DNA of 10,468 nucleotides from contig JAQTNI010000041.1 of NCBI GenBank assembly GCA_028713935.1, positions 1-10,468 of the forward strand, written 5' to 3'. Shown here in pieces: positions 53-10,392 of the stretch. Both the position numbers and the translations under genes were made by a program. The stretch is from Candidatus Iainarchaeum sp. GTDB taxonomy: Archaea > Iainarchaeota > Iainarchaeia > Iainarchaeales > GCA-2688035. The notes beneath the pieces are model-generated. The model had not been told where the DNA came from. It made no database searches and saw nothing but the letters and a program-made list of their open reading frames with translations. Each line of letters starts with the position of its first letter. Within the stretch, counting starts at the first letter, position 1.

Positions 53-60
53 TTTGCTTA

Positions 61-113
61 GGCCTTTCTTTGAAAAAGAAAGCCCTGGGAAAGAAAGACT
101 TGCTTCGCAAGTC
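61..113 (+). repeat. B-family two-hairpin repeat, copy B1
   Basis: ggcc-ctttcttt-gaa-aaagaaag-ccctgggaaagaaa followed by hairpin gacttgc-ttc-gcaagtc. It aligns with copies at 1371-1426 and 1491-1546. A degenerate, rearranged copy lies at about 186-262. Confidence 0.7.
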
Positions 114-265: not shown

Positions 266-378
266 ATGTTTATCAAAAGTTCAGGTTTCTTTTCTTTGGA
301 AGCCATTTAAAATATAATTTGGTTTCTTTTCTTTTGGCAACCTACATTTTCTTTTCTTTGTAAGAAAAGAAAAGGGCA
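266..378 (+). repeat. A-family composite repeat, copy A1, ending 1 nt before tRNA-Val
   Basis: Modules shared with 1230-1331 and 10281-10364: gtttatcaaaagttcagg, two ggtttcttttctttgg(g)caac-type units (284-304, 321-341), and a terminal hairpin at 347-373 (ttttcttttctt / tgt / aagaaaagaaaa, 12 bp) followed by gggcag. A TATA-like tttaaaatata sits inside at 306-316. Confidence 0.7.
306..316 (+). promoter_or_regulatory. TATA-box-like element, candidate tRNA-Val promoter
   Basis: tttaaaatata lies 63-73 nt upstream of tRNA +1 (379). This implies a ~40-nt leader containing the 347-373 hairpin. Confidence 0.35.
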
Positions 379-1229: not shown

Positions 1230-1331
1230 GGTTTCTTTTCTTTGGGCAACAGAGTTTGTTTACCAAAAGTTTAGGCTTCTTTCTTTTGGGCAACTTACAC
1301 TTTTCTTTCTTGGAAAGAAAGAAAAGGGCAG
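1230..1331 (+). repeat. A-family composite repeat, copy A2, ending 1-2 nt before tRNA-Gly(GCC)
   Basis: ggtttcttttctttgggcaac (1230-1250), agtttgtttaccaaaagtttagg (1253-1275), ggcttctttcttttgggcaac (1274-1294), and hairpin 1300-1326 (cttttctttctt / gga / aagaaagaaaag, 12 bp), then gggcag. Confidence 0.75.
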
Positions 1332-1332
1332 T

Positions 1333-1488
1333 GCGGGTGTGGTCTAGTGGCTATGATTCGACCTTGCCAAGGCCTTTTCTTAAAAAGAAAAGCCCTGGGA
1401 AAAGAAGTTTTTGCTAACGCAAAAACAATTTAACCAAAATCGAAATTGCAACGAGGTCGTGGCCCGGGTTCAATTCCCGGCACCCGCA
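1333..1488 (+). tRNA. tRNA-Gly (anticodon GCC) with an 84-nt intron at canonical position 37/38 (intron about 1370-1453)
   Basis: Acceptor stem GCGGGTG/CACCCGC (1333-1339 / 1481-1487). Anticodon stem cgacc (1359-1363) pairs with ggtcg (1455-1459). Anticodon GCC is at 1366-1368. T arm is ccggg-ttcaatt-cccgg. Splice motif: a 4-bp helix 1364-1367/1448-1451 is flanked by 3-nt bulges caa (1368-1370) and cga (1452-1454). Confidence 0.85.
1371..1426 (+). repeat. B-family two-hairpin repeat, copy B2, inside the tRNA-Gly intron
   Basis: ggcc-cttttctt-aaa-aagaaaag-ccctgggaaaagaa, then hairpin gtttttgc-taac-gcaaaaac (1407-1426). It makes up the 5' two-thirds of the intron. Confidence 0.75.
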
Positions 1489-1490
1489 AA

Positions 1491-1546
1491 GCCTTTTCTT
1501 AGAAAGAAAAGCCTTGGGAAAAGAACAATTTGCTCCGCAAAGAATT
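1491..1546 (+). repeat. B-family two-hairpin repeat, copy B3, starting 3 nt after the tRNA-Gly(GCC) 3' end
   Basis: gcc-cttttctt-aga-aagaaaag-ccttgggaaaagaa, then hairpin tttgc-tcc-gcaaa (1529-1541). Confidence 0.7.
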
Positions 1547-3950: not shown

Positions 3951-4021
3951 GCGTCCGTTGTCTAGCGGTAGGATCGCACCCTTCCAAGGTGCTGACCCGG
4001 GTTCGAATCCCGGCGGACGCA
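3951..4021 (+). tRNA. tRNA-Gly (anticodon UCC), no intron
   Basis: Acceptor stem GCGTCCG/CGGACGC (3951-3957 / 4014-4020). Anticodon stem gcacc/ggtgc with loop ct-TCC-aa. T arm ccggg-ttcgaat-cccgg. Discriminator A4021. Confidence 0.9.
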
Positions 4022-4095: not shown

Positions 4096-4881
4096 ATGCA
4101 TGGAAAAAAATCTATTGCGGGAAAGGCCAGGGAGAGCGACAGAAGGCAAGAACGCCTTGAGGCTTTTCAGCGTTTGGTTGCTTCAAACGGCTTTGTAAAC
4201 CTGCAGCAGGTCCTGAGCGTCGCAAGAAAACACAATATTCCAGAAGAACACGCAAAAAGAATTGCTTTTCAACTTGGCTTTTTGGTACGAAAGAACAGGC
4301 GCCCTACAATAGAACATATTCCTGAAAGAAATATTGCCCGAGCTAATTTGAAAATTTTTGCTGCAACTTTTAAAAAATTTGAGAAGCTATTTTGGCAATT
4401 TGCAAATCCCTATATTGCGAAAGGAGTTCCTGAAACAATGCGGTATAATTATTGCATGGATTATTCAATGGCAACTATAGGAAAATTCAGGGGCGCGCGT
4501 TCGAAACTCAATTCTTGGGTTACAAATGGATGGGCGCAGGCAATGCGATCCGCATATCGGGATTTTTTAACAAGAGAAAAAAAGGAACATACAGTCGGCT
4601 CAAAAAAGAAAGGCTATTCTTTTTGGGATACGCAGGGAAGCGAACAAATGAGGCCTGAAGAAGAAACAATTCTTTTTGAACAAAGGCAGAGACTACACAA
4701 AGCGCTAGCACAGTTGCCTGCAAGAGAACGGGAAATTATCCAGCGGTATTATGGAATTGGCACAGGGATTAGCGAGACACATCAGGAGATAGGGGACAGC
4801 TTGGGCATTTCCAGAACTGCTTCAACCCAAAATGTGGAGAGAGCGCTTAAAAAGCTCCGTGAAGCCCTGCAAGAGGAATAA
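4096..4881 (+). CDS. Sigma-70-family-like protein (region 2-like and region 4 HTH) with an N-terminal extension
   Basis: 261-aa ORF. The C-terminus LPAREREIIQRYYGIGTGISETHQEIGDSLGISRTASTQNVERALKKLREAL fits the sigma-70 region 4.1/4.2 pattern (L..RE..v...RyG......T..EIg..lgiSr..v.Q.e..AL.KLR). The central KFRGARSKLNSWVTNGWAQAMRSAYRDFLTREKK resembles region 2 (F..W....a.n...d.lR). Confidence 0.6.
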   Translation: MHGKKSIAGKARESDRRQERLEAFQRLVASNGFVNLQQVLSVARKHNIPEEHAKRIAFQLGFLVRKNRRPTIEHIPERNIARANLKIFAATFKKFEKLFWQFANPYIAKGVPETMRYNYCMDYSMATIGKFRGARSKLNSWVTNGWAQAMRSAYRDFLTREKKEHTVGSKKKGYSFWDTQGSEQMRPEEETILFEQRQRLHKALAQLPAREREIIQRYYGIGTGISETHQEIGDSLGISRTASTQNVERALKKLREALQEE

Positions 4882-5209: not shown

Positions 5210-5217
5210 TAAAACAA

Positions 5218-5574
5218 CTATTTGTTTTTTCGCTTGTCGATTCCGGAACGCCTGTCGTCAAAATAATAATAACGAGTATTTCCTCTCATTTCTGGCGGAG
5301 GACGCGCATTGAGCTCTTGCATTTCTGGAGCATCCGATGGCAACAATTGTACTGGGATGGTGTTAGGAAACTTTACGGGAAGTTTGTCGCGCCCTTTGCC
5401 GATTCGCATAAGAGAAAAAACGTTGTATCCTCTTAAGCCATATCCCTGCTTTTTTAATTCTTCATAAGTGAAAAACCGTTTGCTATTTTGGCTCTGGACG
5501 GCAAACCCATCATCCAATTTCTTGATAACCCTTGTTTGGGTTATCCATTTTCCTTTTTGTTCGCGTAAATCCAT
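5218..5574 (-). CDS. Hypothetical 118-aa protein, no recognisable family
   Basis: Clean ATG ORF preceded on the minus strand by ggagttggtaaATG (SD-like). It is divergent from the AbrB-like gene and shares the palindrome-rich promoter. Confidence 0.5.
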   Translation of the reverse strand: MDLREQKGKWITQTRVIKKLDDGFAVQSQNSKRFFTYEELKKQGYGLRGYNVFSLMRIGKGRDKLPVKFPNTIPVQLLPSDAPEMQELNARPPPEMRGNTRYYYFDDRRSGIDKRKNK

Positions 5575-5590
5575 TTTACCAACTCCATTT

Positions 5591-5668
5591 TAGGTACCTA
5601 AATTAGGTACCGAAATCTTTTAAATAAGTAGGTACCTAATGATAGCATTAAAAGTCGTGGGTACCTAC
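5591..5668. promoter_or_regulatory. Divergent promoter with four GGTACC-core palindromic operator candidates around a bidirectional TATA-like element
   Basis: Sites: taggtaccta (5591-5600), taggtaccga (5604-5613), taggtaccta (5629-5638) and gggtacctac (5659-5668). The near-palindromic cttttaaataag (about 5616-5628) lies between sites 2 and 3. Only one other GGTACC occurs in the window, at 3627-3632. Confidence 0.6.
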
Positions 5669-5669
5669 T

Positions 5670-5852
5670 ATGAACGGAATGAAACTCCAAAAACAGTCAA
5701 CCAGAAAAGTAGGCACCAAAGAATATGTAAAATGGGTTACCACAATTTCCCCAAAACTAATTCAAGACCTTGATTGGAAAGAAGGCGACCAACTTGAACC
5801 ATCGACAAGAGGAAAAAAACTTATAATTCAAAAGAAAGGGGAAAAGAAATGA
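5670..5852 (+). CDS. AbrB/SpoVT/MazE-type (swapped-hairpin) small DNA-binding protein
   Basis: 60-aa ORF. VTTISPKLIQDLDWKEGDQLEPSTRGKKLIIQKK fits the AbrB-family pattern (v.IPk.i.e.Lgl.eGD.le....g..l.i.k). Confidence 0.6.
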   Translation: MNGMKLQKQSTRKVGTKEYVKWVTTISPKLIQDLDWKEGDQLEPSTRGKKLIIQKKGEKK

Positions 5853-5906
5853 CTTTTACCGGCATCGCACCGCCACCAAAAAGTTTTAGAATAAAAAATT
5901 GACGAG

Positions 5907-6881
5907 ATGAAGGAACCGTATATGACCATAGCATATGATTGTGTAAAATGCGGAAATGCGACCGATGCAAAGCAAGGTACAAAAAGATTGGCTATCCAGT
6001 TCTGCCGAGATTGTTTTGGAAAAAGGAAAGATTTACGACAAAATAGATTAAACAATTTGAATGGGAAAGAGTGGGCTGGATTTAGCAAGAGTGTTGAAGA
6101 TTACCCTGGAAATCGAACAGAAAAACAACGCGAACATGGCGCTTGTTATCCGCTTTCGCTTGCCAAACAGCAAATCAGTATTTACACAAAAAAAGGGCAC
6201 ACTGTTTTTGACCCTTTTTTGGGGGTCGGAACAACAGCAGAAGCCGCCGAAATGTTGGGAAGAAAATCCATTGGAATCGAGCTAAACAAAAAATTTGTTG
6301 AACTCGCAAAAAAAGACATAAAAAATAAAGAAAACCATACAATCATACAGGGCGACGCAAGAAACCTTTTGAAGCACATAGCCCCCAATAGCATTGATTT
6401 TCAATTAACGAGTCCACCATATGGCAATCTACTTAAAACAGTGAAAGGAGAGTTTGCGTTCAAATGGAAAGAACATTCAAAAATGAACACTGTAAAAAAT
6501 CCGATTCCCTACTCGTCCGATATAAAGGATTTAGGAAACTTACCATATGCAGAATTCATATCAAGCATTGAGAATATTTTCAAGGACAGCCTTAAAGTAC
6601 TTAAAGATGGTGCATATGCAGTATGGGTTGTAAAAGATTACCGAGACTTGGAAGAAAAAAAACCGCTCGTAAACTTTCATTCTGATATTATTCGCGCTGC
6701 CGAAAACGCGGGTTTAACCCTTTGGGACATTAAGATTTACGACCAGACAAAATTTCGCCCACTTGTTGTATTAGGCTATCCATCAAACAACTATTATCTA
6801 AACATTGGTCACTCTTATATTTTGGTTTTCAGAAAATATTTGAGTGGACGATATGCAAGAGAAACTGGTCAAAGAGTATGA
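5907..6881 (+). CDS. DNA methyltransferase 1 (N4/N6 family, SPPY type) with N-terminal zinc ribbon; AdoMet motif precedes the catalytic motif
   Basis: CVKCG...(17 aa)...CRDCF zinc ribbon. GACYPLSLAKQQISIYTKKGHTVFDPFLGVGTTAEAAEMLGRKSIGIELN matches the AdoMet-binding module of N4/N6 methylases. About 60 aa later comes IDFQLTSPPYGNL (motif IV). Then LKVLKDGAYAVWVVKD. Confidence 0.8.
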   Translation: MKEPYMTIAYDCVKCGNATDAKQGTKRLAIQFCRDCFGKRKDLRQNRLNNLNGKEWAGFSKSVEDYPGNRTEKQREHGACYPLSLAKQQISIYTKKGHTVFDPFLGVGTTAEAAEMLGRKSIGIELNKKFVELAKKDIKNKENHTIIQGDARNLLKHIAPNSIDFQLTSPPYGNLLKTVKGEFAFKWKEHSKMNTVKNPIPYSSDIKDLGNLPYAEFISSIENIFKDSLKVLKDGAYAVWVVKDYRDLEEKKPLVNFHSDIIRAAENAGLTLWDIKIYDQTKFRPLVVLGYPSNNYYLNIGHSYILVFRKYLSGRYARETGQRV

Positions 6882-7344
6882 AAAAAGCGCGAAAAACATC
6901 GCACTTGACCTTGATAACTACACTAATAACAACTATTTAACCCACAATTTTCACCCCTACCCCGCAAAGTACATACCGCAGATACCGAAGGAAATTCTTC
7001 TCCGATTATCAAAAAAAGACGATTGGATACTTGACCCATTTTGCGGCTCTGGAACGACTTTGGTAGAAGCCAAACTCTGTGGCAGGAATTCCATTGGCAG
7101 CGATATTAACCCGCTTTCTTGTATAATTACAAAAGTAAAGACAACAAAATTATCTGAAAATCAAATAAAAGAAATTCGGGAAATCTTAAATCAAGCGAGA
7201 GCAGACTTTATTAGCAAGAAAAAATACCCCGTTCCAGAATACTTAAACATTGATATGTGGTTTGACCGAGAAATAAAAGAGCAACTTGCCATCCTAAAAT
7301 ACCACATCAGTTTGGTCAAAGAGGATGAAGTCAAAATTTTTTAA
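6853..7344 (+). CDS. DNA methyltransferase 2, N-terminal fragment/subunit (AdoMet-binding motif I)
   Basis: HNFHPYPAKYIPQIPKEILLRLSKKDDWILDPFCGSGTTLVEAKLCGRNSIGSDINP. The ORF-track start is GTG 6844; the ATG is at 6853. The ORF ends at TAA 7342-7344, immediately after an A4T6 tract. Confidence 0.7.
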   Translation: MQEKLVKEYEKSAKNIALDLDNYTNNNYLTHNFHPYPAKYIPQIPKEILLRLSKKDDWILDPFCGSGTTLVEAKLCGRNSIGSDINPLSCIITKVKTTKLSENQIKEIREILNQARADFISKKKYPVPEYLNIDMWFDREIKEQLAILKYHISLVKEDEVKIF

Positions 7345-7991
7345 TGGTTGCTTTTTCTTCCATACTTGTAAAAGTGTCAAATCAAGATAGCGATACCCGT
7401 TACGCTGCAATTAAAAAAAAATTGCCACAAAATGCTGTTTGGTCTTATTTTGACAAGAAAGCAAAAGACATGCTGAAACGGATTGAAAGTTTTAACGCAG
7501 AAGCATCAAATTGTCCATGCGAAGTTTATCTTTCGGATTCTCGCAATCTGGACTTTCTCAAAAAGGAAATTGACCTTGTAATCACATCCCCGCCATATTT
7601 GAATAGCTATGATTATTACCTTTACCACAAACACCGGATGCTGTGGTTGGGACTAGACTACAGGAGTGCACAAGAAAAAGAATTTGGCTCAAGGAACAAG
7701 CATAGTGATAACCATGAAGGTATAGAAAGCTATGTAGATGCAGTAACCGCGAGCGTAAGTCATATTTCAAAAAATCTGAAAAAAAACGCGCATTTCTGTG
7801 TAATCATTGGCGACGCAATATTAAAAGGGGAAATTATAAAAATGAATGCGATCTTTGACGAAATTTTTCTAAAACAAGGATATACAAAAACTCGCGAAAT
7901 TCGTTTTGAGCAAAGAAAGTACACAAGAACATTTACCCCAAATATTAAAACCAAATTCAAGGAGTCATATATTCTAATATATCGGCGTTAA
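7344..7991 (+). CDS. DNA methyltransferase 2, C-terminal fragment/subunit (catalytic SPPY motif IV)
   Basis: Contains IDLVITSPPYLNSYDYY and HFCVIIGD. The ATG overlaps the upstream stop (TAATG). The frame is open only from 7329. Its stop overlaps the convergent nuclease stop (ttaa, 7988-7991). Confidence 0.7.
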   Translation: MVAFSSILVKVSNQDSDTRYAAIKKKLPQNAVWSYFDKKAKDMLKRIESFNAEASNCPCEVYLSDSRNLDFLKKEIDLVITSPPYLNSYDYYLYHKHRMLWLGLDYRSAQEKEFGSRNKHSDNHEGIESYVDAVTASVSHISKNLKKNAHFCVIIGDAILKGEIIKMNAIFDEIFLKQGYTKTREIRFEQRKYTRTFTPNIKTKFKESYILIYRR

Positions 7992-9139
7992 AGCGAAGAA
8001 TATCTTTTATCGCCAAAAGAAGAATATTCCGTTGAACTTTTTGAGATTACTCTAACTATAAACCAAACATCAGGGTTATCCGTCAATTTGAACTCCAAAA
8101 TATCGCCGCTTGAAAGAGAATTTAACATTGTTCGATTTAGAAATGTAAATCGCAATTCTTGATTCTTTCGTGCATGGGTTGGGGCGGGCAAGTAGTGAAT
8201 TGCTCTGACATTATTGAGTCGATTTTTTTCACCTGCTGAATCTAGCATAATAATATTAAAAAAAACGTCTGCTTGTCTGGCGTCACTTTCGGTGGTAACC
8301 CAATCAGAAAACGGTGGAAAATAGGTCAAAAACTGAATAGGTATTACTATTTGGCCTGGGGAACTGGTTTGGCTCACGTCATTTTTAGATAACTTTTTCC
8401 AAAAACCGCGATTGATTGAGGATATTCCAGTAACTTCCAAATTTTGTTCATCTCGTTGGTGTATGATAGTAACGGGCGGCGGGCGAAAGGATTCTGAACC
8501 AAATATTGGTTCCTTTCCAGCAGATTGGGATTCAAATCGGCTCCCGTATCCTGCCCCAGATTCAACTTCCTCATTCCCCAAATAATTTTTTTGAATGAGT
8601 CGATTAAGTAGTTCGGGTGAAAGGCACTTACAACAGGGCGAGGTTGCACTTGAATAAGAGGAAAATATCGATTTGTATTTTGAATACTCCGTTAGTTGTT
8701 CTTGGTTTGTCAAATCAAAATCATACTGGCAGTTTATTTCATAATTTGTGTATAGCCCACCCGCAGTTAGATTACTTGAACCAACGATAACTATAGCCCG
8801 CAAATTATTTTTTTCAAAAAAATATATTTTGGGGTGAAACGTTTGGGTTATGCTCTCGCTATGATACACATAAAGCTCATCACACAATGGGAGTAACATC
8901 TGAAGCCCTTGTTGCGAAGTATTTTTTTGGTCAATCCCAACGATTCCTTTAATGTGCCCGCCCGATTGTCGAAATCGTTGAAGATATGGCTGTAATCGAA
9001 TTACTCCGCTTTTCTTTACATACGCCGCCATGAAATAGAAGGTATCAAAGGAATCTGTTTGTGGGAGGTTCAGAAGTTCTGCGAGTTTTTCCCCTGCCTT
9101 TTTGTTTCGGGGCTGGTCAATAAGTTCAATCCAAGTCAT
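7988..9139 (-). CDS. Restriction endonuclease candidate: N-terminal HKD/PLD-family nuclease fused to a C-terminal B3/EcoRII-N-like DNA-binding domain (BfiI-like)
   Basis: 383-aa ORF. It has a single HKD motif, HPKIYFFEKNNLRAIVIVGSSNLTAGG (HxK...GSxN). The C-terminal GFWKKLSKNDVSQTSSPGQIVIPIQFLTYFP ... SGDILEFK fits the F.K.Ls.nDv......q..IP......fP ... GD...F pattern of B3 / EcoRII N-terminal pseudobarrels. Confidence 0.7.
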   Translation of the reverse strand: MTWIELIDQPRNKKAGEKLAELLNLPQTDSFDTFYFMAAYVKKSGVIRLQPYLQRFRQSGGHIKGIVGIDQKNTSQQGLQMLLPLCDELYVYHSESITQTFHPKIYFFEKNNLRAIVIVGSSNLTAGGLYTNYEINCQYDFDLTNQEQLTEYSKYKSIFSSYSSATSPCCKCLSPELLNRLIQKNYLGNEEVESGAGYGSRFESQSAGKEPIFGSESFRPPPVTIIHQRDEQNLEVTGISSINRGFWKKLSKNDVSQTSSPGQIVIPIQFLTYFPPFSDWVTTESDARQADVFFNIIMLDSAGEKNRLNNVRAIHYLPAPTHARKNQELRFTFLNRTMLNSLSSGDILEFKLTDNPDVWFIVRVISKSSTEYSSFGDKRYSSL

Positions 9140-9159
9140 GTTGTAATTAAAGTGGTAAA

Positions 9160-9174
9160 AACTTTAAAAATATG
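9160..9174 (-). promoter_or_regulatory. TATA-box-like element for the nuclease gene
   Basis: The minus strand reads atatttttaaag, centred ~28 nt upstream of ATG 9139. There is no SD, suggesting a leaderless mRNA. Confidence 0.35.
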
Positions 9175-9417
9175 ACCAAACAACGCTTTTGATGGATTTG
9201 AGGCAGTAGACAAAATAAGTGACAAAAACAGGGTTTAATCGAATATGCACACAGCCGAGTGAATACTTAAACAAAGCCTCATATGAGGCGCTCGCAAGGC
9301 TTTTAAACACTCTTTTTCAAGAACTTATTATTGAATTGAAAAATTCTTTTTTTTGCTTCCGAAAGGTTAAGCAAAAAGCGCCGAAAGGGCGTTGAAAAGT
9401 ATTGAGAGGGATTGTAA

Positions 9418-10011: not shown

Positions 10012-10276
10012 GCGGCCTGAAGAAAGCAATTCCGCAAAACAGGAAAAAATTGAAGCAGAGCTTGAAGAAGGCCTGCGAATGGCTCTTACCCAAGAAGCCA
10101 AAATGCGGCTTGGCAATGTAAAGCTTGTAAATCAGGAACTTTATTACAAGGCTGTCCAGGCAATTCTGTATCTTGTAAAAAGCGGAAGGATAAGCGGAAA
10201 AATTGATGAGGCGCAAATAAAGCAATTGTTGGAAAAATTATCTGTAAAAAGGGAAATTAGCATTAGACGGAGATGA
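10004..10276 (+). CDS. PDCD5/TFAR19-like double-stranded DNA-binding protein
   Basis: 90-aa ORF. LTQEAKMRLGNVKLVNQELYYKAVQAILYLVKSGRISGKIDEAQIKQLLEKL fits the archaeal PDCD5-homolog pattern. It overlaps the S19e stop by 8 nt, which suggests an operon. Confidence 0.75.
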   Translation: MNERPEESNSAKQEKIEAELEEGLRMALTQEAKMRLGNVKLVNQELYYKAVQAILYLVKSGRISGKIDEAQIKQLLEKLSVKREISIRRR

Positions 10277-10280
10277 AAAA

Positions 10281-10364
10281 CAAAGTTTGTTTACCAAAGA
10301 TAAAGGTTCTTTTTCTTTGGGCAACTTGCACTTTCTTTTTCTTTGAAAGAAAAAGAAAGTGCAG
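10281..10364 (+). repeat. A-family repeat, copy A3, not next to a tRNA, with a perfect 17-bp hairpin
   Basis: agtttgtttaccaaagataaagg, ggttctttttctttgggcaac (10305-10325), and hairpin 10328-10362 (gcactttctttttcttt / g / aaagaaaaagaaagtgc), then ag. Confidence 0.75.
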
Positions 10365-10392
10365 AAGGGAAATTAGCATTAGGAGAAGATGA
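10365..10392 (+). repeat. Second copy of a 28-bp direct repeat (first copy 10249-10276, the last 8 codons plus stop of the PDCD5-like gene)
   Basis: aagggaaattagcattagacggagatga versus aagggaaattagcattaggagaagatga. That is 25/28 identical, and both read REISIRRR-stop in frame. Confidence 0.8.

Follow-up and report, generated by a model that had tools for sequence, protein, structure and literature searches.

A structured repeat forms the body of a predicted tRNA-Gly(GCC) intron in an Iainarchaeota contig and recurs at the start of tRNA introns in related genomes

How the introns of archaeal transfer RNA (tRNA) genes, and by descent those of eukaryotic ones, originate and spread is an old open question, for which the best earlier clue has been the likeness among introns of the Thermoproteales, a clue that came without a mechanism. 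The tRNA-Gly(GCC) gene of a 10,468-nt contig (JAQTNI010000041.1; hereafter the window, meaning the whole stretch of DNA that was analysed) raises this question in a concrete form. The window is an entire contig of a metagenome-assembled genome (MAG) labelled ‘Candidatus ainarchaeum sp.’, and the genus Iainarchaeum is placed in the phylum Iainarchaeota of the kingdom Nanobdellati (DPANN). A preliminary description, made from the letters alone, had proposed that the gene is interrupted by an intron built from a repeat element, here called B, which recurs right after the same gene and elsewhere. On the evidence below, drawn throughout from MAG or metagenome assemblies of uncultivated organisms, we consider it fairly probable that tRNA-Gly(GCC) is a working gene with a protein-spliced intron, and that B, which makes up the body of this intron, is a portable structured cassette that spreads within genomes.

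On 1333–1488 the Rfam tRNA model scored 45.5 bits, against a gathering score of 29, and placed an 86-nt insert in the anticodon loop. ARAGORN did not call the gene by default and returned a tRNA-Gly(gcc) with an 84-nt intron in its intron mode, and joining 1333–1369 to 1454–1488 yielded a clean 72-nt cloverleaf, in agreement with the preliminary proposal that 84 nt are removed at position 37/38. The parts of the gene are listed below, where L045 denotes a contig of the Iainarchaeum MAG DeMMO3_25 that carries the syntenic ortholog.

1333–1369, forward strand: exon 1 of tRNA-Gly(GCC), tRNA positions 1–37, with the anticodon gcc at 1366–1368 (Rfam, ARAGORN intron mode, 37/37 identity to L045)
1364–1367, forward strand: 5′ strand of the central helix, ttgc (tRNA positions 32–35), followed by the 5′ bulge c1368 a1369 (predicted cut) a1370 (sequence reading, scripted check with 4/4 pairs, constrained fold)
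1370–1453, forward strand: predicted 84-nt intron at the canonical site 37/38 (Rfam, ARAGORN, cloverleaf on removal, L045 ortholog)
1427–1447, forward strand: intron tail between B and the central helix, in which a weak AAUU/AAUU hairpin abutting the helix is possible (sequence reading; diverged from L045 except at its 3′ end)
1448–1454, forward strand: 3′ strand of the central helix, gcaa 1448–1451, and the 3′ bulge c1452 g1453 (predicted cut) a1454 (same checks; kept in L045)
1454–1488, forward strand: exon 2 of tRNA-Gly(GCC), tRNA positions 38–73, CCA not encoded (Rfam; 35/35 identity to L045)

The 4-bp central helix lies between two 3-nt bulges on opposite strands, each predicted to be cut after its second base, so the geometry read by eye in the preliminary description (bulges caa and cga around ttgc/gcaa) was confirmed by both the sequence check and the constrained fold. 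That description had also missed one flanking helix, which is indeed absent; it is the inner helix rather than the outer one, since the anticodon stem (1359–1363/1455–1459) is present and serves as the outer helix of the splice motif. On the inner side at best two G.U pairs can form (1371–72 with 1446–47), and a local hairpin at 1371–1395 abuts the 5′ bulge in the place of the inner helix. The intron thus falls outside the strict hBHBh′ form, which has both flanking helices, and with an inner helix of at most two G.U pairs and an outer helix in place it belongs to the relaxed hBH class. As read from its sequence, with the canonical site and the cloverleaf left by its removal, it is an intron of the archaeal protein-spliced class in relaxed form. 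It has in common with other relaxed hBH and HBh′ archaeal introns the 37/38 site, the 4-bp helix between anticodon loop and intron 3′ end, the two symmetrically cut 3-nt bulges and the anticodon stem as outer helix. Relaxed splice motifs with independent splice sites have been documented, and DPANN endonucleases with extra loops have been linked to many disrupted tRNA genes (PMC4090602, PMC5829648). Unlike archaeal bulge-helix-bulge (BHB) introns, the present one has a repeat-family hairpin where the inner helix between the intron ends would be, and introns of many unrelated tRNAs begin with one and the same 40-nt core.

The preliminary description had suggested comparing the orthologous tRNA-Gly in a relative. 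A query with the tRNA-Gly(GCC) exon sequence gave no matches in the metagenome collection, Logan contigs with exact window proteins were all short and ended at repeats, and the ortholog in L045 was located through the neighbouring HAD protein. The two contigs share the order HAD, tRNA-Gly(GCC), membrane protein, thymidylate kinase, tRNA-Gly(UCC), sigma-70-region-4 protein, Rpr2, S19e and dsDNA-binding protein, with 80% identity between the HAD proteins. The tRNA-Gly(GCC) exons are identical at all 72 positions, whereas the introns and flanks have diverged, which argues that the gene is under selection. In L045 the intron is 90 nt long, lies at the same site, is B-headed and ends in the same 6 nt, GCAACG, and the splice motif is kept; the differences comprise paired changes in its second hairpin and a three-way change in B (U12>C, A16>G, A37>G). 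A B-like trailer likewise follows the L045 gene. An intron at the same site with the same head must be older than the split of the two genomes, so that the mobile-element reading in the preliminary description does not hold here in the form of a recent gain. These data also bear on the possibility that the locus is a repeat-disrupted pseudogene while a separate intact tRNA-Gly(GCC) serves the cell. Only a 10.5-kb contig is in view, the other parts of the genome being unseen, and the default ARAGORN run was silent; nevertheless exon identity in the face of diverged introns, diverged flanks and 80% protein identity, the conserved splice motif and the recurrence of the same design in 18 tRNA species, many of them single-copy in archaea, make this very improbable.

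What, then, is the sequence that forms the intron body? Three copies of B were delimited in the window.

60–113, forward strand: B copy 1, with hairpin 1 at 61–85, the mirror run at 89–96 and hairpin 2 at 97–113 (pattern; covariance model 62.7 bits), 59 nt from the contig end
1370–1426, forward strand: B copy 2, the intron body, with A1370, hairpin 1 at 1371–1395 (C1373.C1393), linker, purine run g1399–a1406 and hairpin 2 at 1407–1426 (covariance model 64.2 bits)
1489–1542, forward strand: B copy 3, 1 nt after the discriminator A1488, with hairpin 1 at 1490–1514, the mirror run to 1525 and a short hairpin 2 at 1530–1542 (65.3 bits)

The intron copy described earlier as some 56 nt is a member of the family and starts one base earlier, at a conserved A; its two relatives are real as well, with the downstream one beginning 1 nt, not 3 nt, after the discriminator and the one near the contig start beginning at 60. 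A T6 run follows copy 3 at 1545–1550. A degenerate 31-nt pattern matched the window exactly at 62–92, 1372–1402 and 1491–1521, and it had no match in 200 dinucleotide-preserving shuffles even at three mismatches. Such likeness could in principle be a chance matter of low-complexity purine/pyrimidine runs, as the preliminary description had conceded, given that the window is 37–40% G+C with many A- and T-runs and that many weak covariance-model matches were bare pyrimidine/purine hairpins. Yet it is not confined to the runs but extends to GCC...GCCYTGGG, the C.C mismatch and the second hairpin, and the non-run parts (A-R-GCC, GCCYTGGG and the C.C mismatch) do not vary among some 90 copies drawn from many genomes; together with the empty shuffles this leaves chance a negligible probability, and we count it as already refuted. 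A further stretch at 184–262 of the window looks like a rearranged or decayed B (AAGGCTTTTTCTTGAAAAGAAA ... GGGAAAAAGAAGCC), on which the covariance model matched weakly, at 15 bits and over the hairpin core only.

An alignment of 46 copies gave the order of parts of B as a conserved A, hairpin 1 (R-G-C.C-CUUUYYUU / AARRAAAG-C.C-C-Y), a linker UGG, a purine run and a second hairpin. The A precedes hairpin 1 in 45 of the 46 copies, though it lies outside the search pattern. Hairpin 1 has 10 pairs (99.5% paired, 3 covarying), its closing pair being A-U in 22 copies and G-C in 17, and its C.C mismatch is invariant. In about 40 of 57 copies hairpin 2 follows directly on the purine run, with a stem of 7–10 bp that varies in sequence and conserved loop-adjacent bases (UGC-N3/4-GCA). 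The purine run mirrors the 3′ arm of hairpin 1, always at one offset: the reversed arm equals the run perfectly in 47 of 64 distinct variants, the direct repeat in only 7 of 64, and the relation holds across at least 9 sequence variants of B. Several changes have kept it, namely those at columns 12-16-37 (U-A/A to C-G/G) in L045 and the loci L033 and L013, those at columns 5-23-30 in L013, and a 2-bp hairpin extension accompanied by two extra A's in the purine run in L031. The alternative that the purine run pairs with the 5′ arm of the hairpin in ordinary antiparallel fashion was considered and rejected; it fits the two main variants and fails at columns 12-16-37 and 5-23-30. Among the longer B-headed introns, those in L021, L025, L031 and L035 have extra hairpins of the form xAATTGC-N3-GCAATTx after hairpin 2, with the same UGC...GCA loop motif, and in L080 (around 1990, minus strand) the purine-run unit TGGGAAAAGAA occurs four times in tandem after hairpin 1 of a tRNA intron. 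Searches of Rfam returned no family matching B, or the A elements treated below, at the gathering threshold or at E<=1, no C/D, H/ACA or K-turn features were seen in either, and a full-text literature search found no published description of an element like B.

Intramolecular triplexes have as their signature a mirror repeat in a purine/pyrimidine tract, and B has such a homopurine/homopyrimidine repeat with a would-be third strand that changes together with the duplex. The purine run and hairpin of B may therefore adopt a triplex-like geometry, and with its mirror covariation B is one of the few natural candidates for long triple helices of the purine type. Triplexes of the purine.purine-pyrimidine type are well established for DNA and not for RNA, which gives some standing to the view that A and B act at the DNA level, as H-DNA-like mirror repeats that affect replication, recombination or supercoiling, their places beside tRNA genes marking sites at which such structures arise or are tolerated and their location in introns being incidental. 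Besides the mirror relation itself, both strands of B could fold into three-stranded forms, and the A elements show the same architecture on the other strand. However, the sense-only copies in introns and the single-nucleotide phasing to RNA processing sites (see below) have no rationale in DNA, hairpin 2 covaries like an RNA stem, and the upstream run of A is both a direct and a mirror repeat, so that a triplex is unnecessary there. On balance we find an action at the DNA level improbable.

How widely B occurs was asked with the pattern in archaeal and bacterial assemblies, one genome per species, where it hit 40 loci, mostly in MAGs labelled Iainarchaeum or ainarchaeum; 38 further loci came from metagenomes. 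Among 2.9 million viral contigs there were no matches, and a viral origin was set aside. The non-redundant set comprises about 90 copies in roughly 75 MAG and metagenome loci, and a covariance model built from the B alignment found about 80 copies above 27 bits in 289 kb. One MAG holds 13 strict copies on separate contigs, and more by the covariance model. The three copies noted in the window thus belong to a wide family, and the census relative to tRNA genes advised in the preliminary description, made on loci mostly selected for carrying B, placed 30 of the 90 non-redundant copies at intron starts when metagenome loci were included. Among 82 classified copies, tRNA introns hold 20, of which 18 open the intron; another 6 fall straight after a tRNA 3′ end, 11 after the stop codon of a long open reading frame (ORF) on the same strand at −1 to +4 nt, with the conserved A often being the last base of the stop codon, 8 in tandem with another copy, and 37 in none of these classes. 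About 40% of the copies are inside or next to tRNA genes.

The B-headed introns cover 18 anticodons of 11 amino-acid families (Ala, Arg, Asp, Cys, Gly, Ile, Leu, Pro, Ser, Thr, Val). All those found are at or within 1 nt of 37/38, with none at a non-canonical position, and no intron carries B in antisense. In 13 listed introns the 5′ splice site immediately precedes the conserved A, and the 4-bp anticodon-loop helix is intact in most. The shortest B-headed introns amount to B plus about 8 nt (Ser-CGA 45 nt, Val-GAC 47 nt). Across the phylum, then, B appears as a standard 5′ module of canonical tRNA introns, sense-oriented and phased to the splice site. One copy was found in an insertion in 16S rRNA (L020), where its 5′ arm pairs with the 3′ end of the insertion as a normal inner helix would. 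In L010, the tRNA-Ala(UGC) of the rRNA-operon spacer has a B-headed intron, and weak B-like matches (29–33 bits) occur at 2394–2435 and 2575–2615 in a 23S rRNA gene about 180 nt longer than the Rfam model.

From the sense orientation and the splice-site phasing, a role in RNA is at least as likely as purely selfish spread. B might be a host RNA end module, a kind of ‘punctuation’ in the form of a compact nuclease-resistant fold placed at cut or end sites (5′ splice site, tRNA 3′ end, stop codon) for processing, insulation or stability or as a terminator with a U-rich arm; its spread would then be a by-product of selection, and the intron copy would be required for tRNA maturation instead of being a relic of insertion. 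The junctions fit this to the nucleotide, not only at the splice site but also at tRNA 3′ ends, which precede B by 0–2 nt, and at stop codons, whose ends fall within −2 to +2 nt of the conserved A in 9 cases, antisense genes giving no comparable peak. (Open-frame scans were too noisy to orient B against protein genes, since in this A/T-rich DNA about half of the copies fall in spurious frames, and the stop-codon peak alone was used.) Some copies lie between a stop codon and the ribosome-binding site and ATG of the next gene (L040, L028), the intron copies are always sense, the structure is kept in orthologous copies through compensatory and three-way changes, and in the window tRNA-Gly(GCC) has the CCTTTTCTT of B at the place of the plain T-runs with which the other two tRNAs end. 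But a terminator carried in an intron would abort the tRNA, B stands at a minority of gene ends only (in the 12.6 kb of L045 there are 2 copies, both at one tRNA), no processing enzyme is known to recognise such a fold, and tandem arrays, flank duplications and copies that are reversed or upstream of tRNAs would not be expected. We rate the end module as unlikely, though with weight enough to be kept in sight.

Such arrays, of two to four B or B-like copies, were seen in L064 (170 nt upstream of tRNA-Ser(GCU)), L018, L036/L009, L035 (204–353) and L005 (2967–3091), and several of them sit just upstream of tRNA genes. Contig ends frequently fall within B copies, which suggests that B probably breaks assemblies. 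In L041 (3807–3846) and L052 (346–376) a reverse-oriented B abuts the 5′ end of a tRNA encoded on the opposite strand and, read on the strand of that tRNA, takes the place that A elements have in the window.

If B is a portable cassette, the intron could work as follows. It consists of the 57-nt B and a tRNA-specific tail, and of its final 6 nt the GCAA pairs with U32–C35 and the CG lies in the 3′ bulge. In the precursor the UUGC/GCAA helix would then lie between two 3-nt bulges, with the anticodon stem beyond one of them, to give an hBH motif, and the B hairpin, beginning one nucleotide past the 5′ cut, would stack in place of the inner helix. In this way the 5′ site would be offered as a 3-nt bulge between two helices to an endonuclease of broad specificity; the archaeal splicing endonuclease would cut both bulges and an RtcB-type ligase would join the exons. 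Any tRNA whose anticodon loop pairs with a few bases after B could carry the cassette. Its spread, be it from element into intron or from intron outwards, would proceed by insertion or duplication, with 9–45 nt of upstream flank copied in some cases.

Traces of insertion or copying were found outside introns, both for B and for a second type of element, A, of which the window has three full copies.

321–378, forward strand: A element directly upstream of tRNA-Val(UAC) (379–450)
1274–1332, forward strand: A element with a pyrimidine run at 1277–1287, the spacer gggcaacttaca, a 12-bp pyrimidine/purine hairpin at 1300–1326, and ggcagt up to the 5′ end of tRNA-Gly(GCC)
10305–10363, forward strand: A element after the dsDNA_bind (PDCD5-like) gene, in an inserted segment at 10277–10364

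The architecture of A, a pyrimidine run, the spacer GGGCAAC(N5) and a pyrimidine/purine hairpin of 12–14 bp, is that of B in reverse complement. The elements at 321–378 and 1274–1332 end 5–6 nt before the tRNA 5′ end, partial copies occur at 284–299 and 1230–1250, and the element upstream of tRNA-Gly(GCC) is kept in L045, its hairpin and upstream run lengthened jointly. A triple helix in A was rejected as a candidate: in 4 of 4 copies examined the hairpin arm recurs in the upstream run as a direct and equally as a mirror repeat, which makes an alternative hairpin indistinguishable from a triplex. Pairing between A and B copy 3 as leader and trailer around the tRNA amounts to only 5–7 bp. A box TTTTAAAA lies at 1169–1176, some 160 nt ahead of tRNA-Gly(GCC) in a block conserved in L045; should it be the promoter, the pre-tRNA leader would be roughly 120–130 nt long and contain the A element.

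The third A element lies in an 88-nt segment (10277–10364) set between two 28-nt copies of the gene end (10249–10276 and 10365–10392), which differ at 3 bases and both encode REISIRRR-stop. At the orthologous site L045 has the stop, 24 nt and the next ATG, with the 88-nt segment absent. Around several B copies, a stretch of upstream flank that ends exactly at the first base of B recurs just after the element: a perfect 26-nt duplication with a 67-nt insert in L027, a 22-nt one equal to the 3′ end of a tRNA-Arg on the opposite strand in L033, a 17-nt one in L035 that equals the first 14 nt of a tRNA-Ser plus 3 upstream bases and leaves the gene intact, a 9-nt one equal to the last 9 nt of a tRNA in L021, and duplications of 23 and 45 nt in flank-B-flank-B-flank arrays in L013 and L005. 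Control flanks 500 nt away had a longest match of 10 nt. Within introns, two different tRNA genes of DeMMO3_25 share the rare CUC/GAG/GAG variant of B at the intron head, which points to copying or gene conversion within the genome, and the intron of tRNA-Leu(CAA), B-headed in three genomes, is absent from this gene in the more distant relative L047. The B family thus evidently inserts or duplicates, at least outside introns, and it is in the flank duplications, the insertion polymorphism against the syntenic genome and the sharing of one variant by different introns that the mobile-element reading of the preliminary description stands. With B found outside introns together with insertion footprints, intron gain becomes directly testable.

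Several points weigh against the cassette as we read it. The splicing of tRNA-Gly(GCC) is itself inferred, and the unconstrained minimum fold of the precursor (−31.0 kcal/mol) extends the anticodon stem and lacks the splice motif, which the motif-constrained fold has at −27.9 kcal/mol. At the tRNA-Gly(GCC) intron and at 12 other B-headed introns a flank duplication was undetectable, which leaves the mobile-element reading unsupported on this point. A decayed target duplication in the intron tail was also tried and rejected, as window CGAAATTGCAA agrees with the exon end CGACCTTGCCA at 8 of 11 positions with no excess over the control: across 13 introns the tail scored 6–12 against its own exon, compared with a cross-tRNA control mean of 9.4 and maximum of 14, and scores inside the control range give no direct sign of insertion into tRNA genes. 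Neither a transposase nor a reverse transcriptase nor any other gene for mobilisation turned up, no search aimed at partner genes having been made. The intact structure of orthologous B copies fits a host-level function or gene conversion equally well, and the perfect duplications around repeats could be assembly artefacts, whereas the diverged 28-nt pair in the window cannot. To our knowledge, purine-motif triple helices have not been established for RNA. Finally, as most loci were chosen for carrying B, the context percentages are biased; the only sample not picked for B is L045 with the window, where 4 of 5 copies are at tRNA-Gly(GCC).

How does B compare with known systems? The archaeal tRNA-Trp intron holds a C/D box guide RNA, and B resembles it as a conserved structured module embedded in a tRNA intron, from which splicing would release it; it differs in having neither C/D or H/ACA boxes nor an Rfam family and in occurring in many tRNAs. 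Triple-helical RNA stability elements, in which an element for nuclear expression (ENE) goes with an A-rich tract, are known, for example in MALAT1, a transcript with a 3′ end cut by RNase P ahead of a tRNA-like structure. The A elements at 321–378 and 1274–1332 are similar in having two U-rich runs and one A-rich run and in ending 5–6 nt before the RNase P site at a tRNA 5′ end, and they differ in that their upstream run is equally a direct repeat; on its sense strand, B would need a purine-motif triplex.

As small, non-coding, imperfect palindromes in many copies per genome, often just downstream of genes, in tandem clusters and breaking assemblies, B elements are like the bacterial repetitive extragenic palindromic (REP) sequences and bacterial interspersed mosaic elements (BIME) and like miniature inverted-repeat transposable elements (MITE). 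Unlike a MITE, B has no terminal inverted repeats, since it starts with A-R-GCC and has unrelated ends (L027, L033, L035, L021), its inverted repeat being the internal hairpin, and the duplications are of 9, 17, 22, 23, 26, 28 and 45 nt and not of a short fixed length. The likeness to REP is partial: B follows stop codons and forms arrays, yet about two fifths of its copies are in or next to tRNA genes, as counted above, its head is A-R-GCC and not GTAG, and no linked REP-associated tyrosine transposase (RAYT) turned up, RAYT genes not having been searched for. From both REP and MITE, B is set apart by its extra mirror-repeat strand and by the copies inside spliced introns in a single orientation.

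Introner elements are transposons that create spliceosomal introns. Like the introners of algae and fungi (PMC11282704), B is one family present in introns and in intergenic DNA that brings along most of what splicing needs; unlike them, B introns would use a protein endonuclease that recognises RNA shape, and the test for a co-opted target duplication was negative. In the Thermoproteales, according to 2010 work as it is reported in PMC4090602, near-identical introns are found in tRNAs of different identity within a lineage, which implies a gain by copying through a mechanism suspected to act at the DNA level. As far as that report conveys it, this ‘intron transposition’ matches the highly similar B-headed introns in tRNAs of different identity (18 anticodons), and the present case departs from it in concerning a different phylum, canonical sites only, a structured module that is found outside introns too, and some copies that are duplication-flanked. 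It is a tentative possibility, and rather a doubtful one, that A and B together make up an undescribed class of archaeal element, a hairpin with a mirror third strand, acting as ‘archaeal introners’ and as markers of RNA ends, and installed at processing sites through some mechanism that recognises RNA ends or processing complexes, with long, variable flank duplications as its trace. If A and B are archaeal introners in this sense, most tRNA introns of a phylum would descend from one mobile cassette. DPANN tRNA sets often look incomplete, and a local hairpin in place of a splice-motif helix matters for intron-aware tRNA prediction in this group.

Some other features of the two syntenic contigs were noted. 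In L045, tRNA-Gly(UCC) (9030–9145) has an insertion of about 43 nt between D-loop and anticodon stem, a non-canonical intron without B, which the tRNA-Gly(UCC) of the window (3951–4021) does not have, so that intron presence differs between close relatives. Between Rpr2 and S19e, which adjoin in L045, the window contains a restriction-modification island (about 5210–9400) with two N6_N4 DNA methyltransferases, the second of them split into two ORFs at 7344, an NgoFVII-like PLD-family restriction endonuclease and two small ORFs without a Pfam match. At 4096–4881 a 261-aa protein with a bacterial-type sigma-70 region 4 domain (Pfam E=2.6e-13) is encoded in this archaeal genome, and it occupies the same position in L045.

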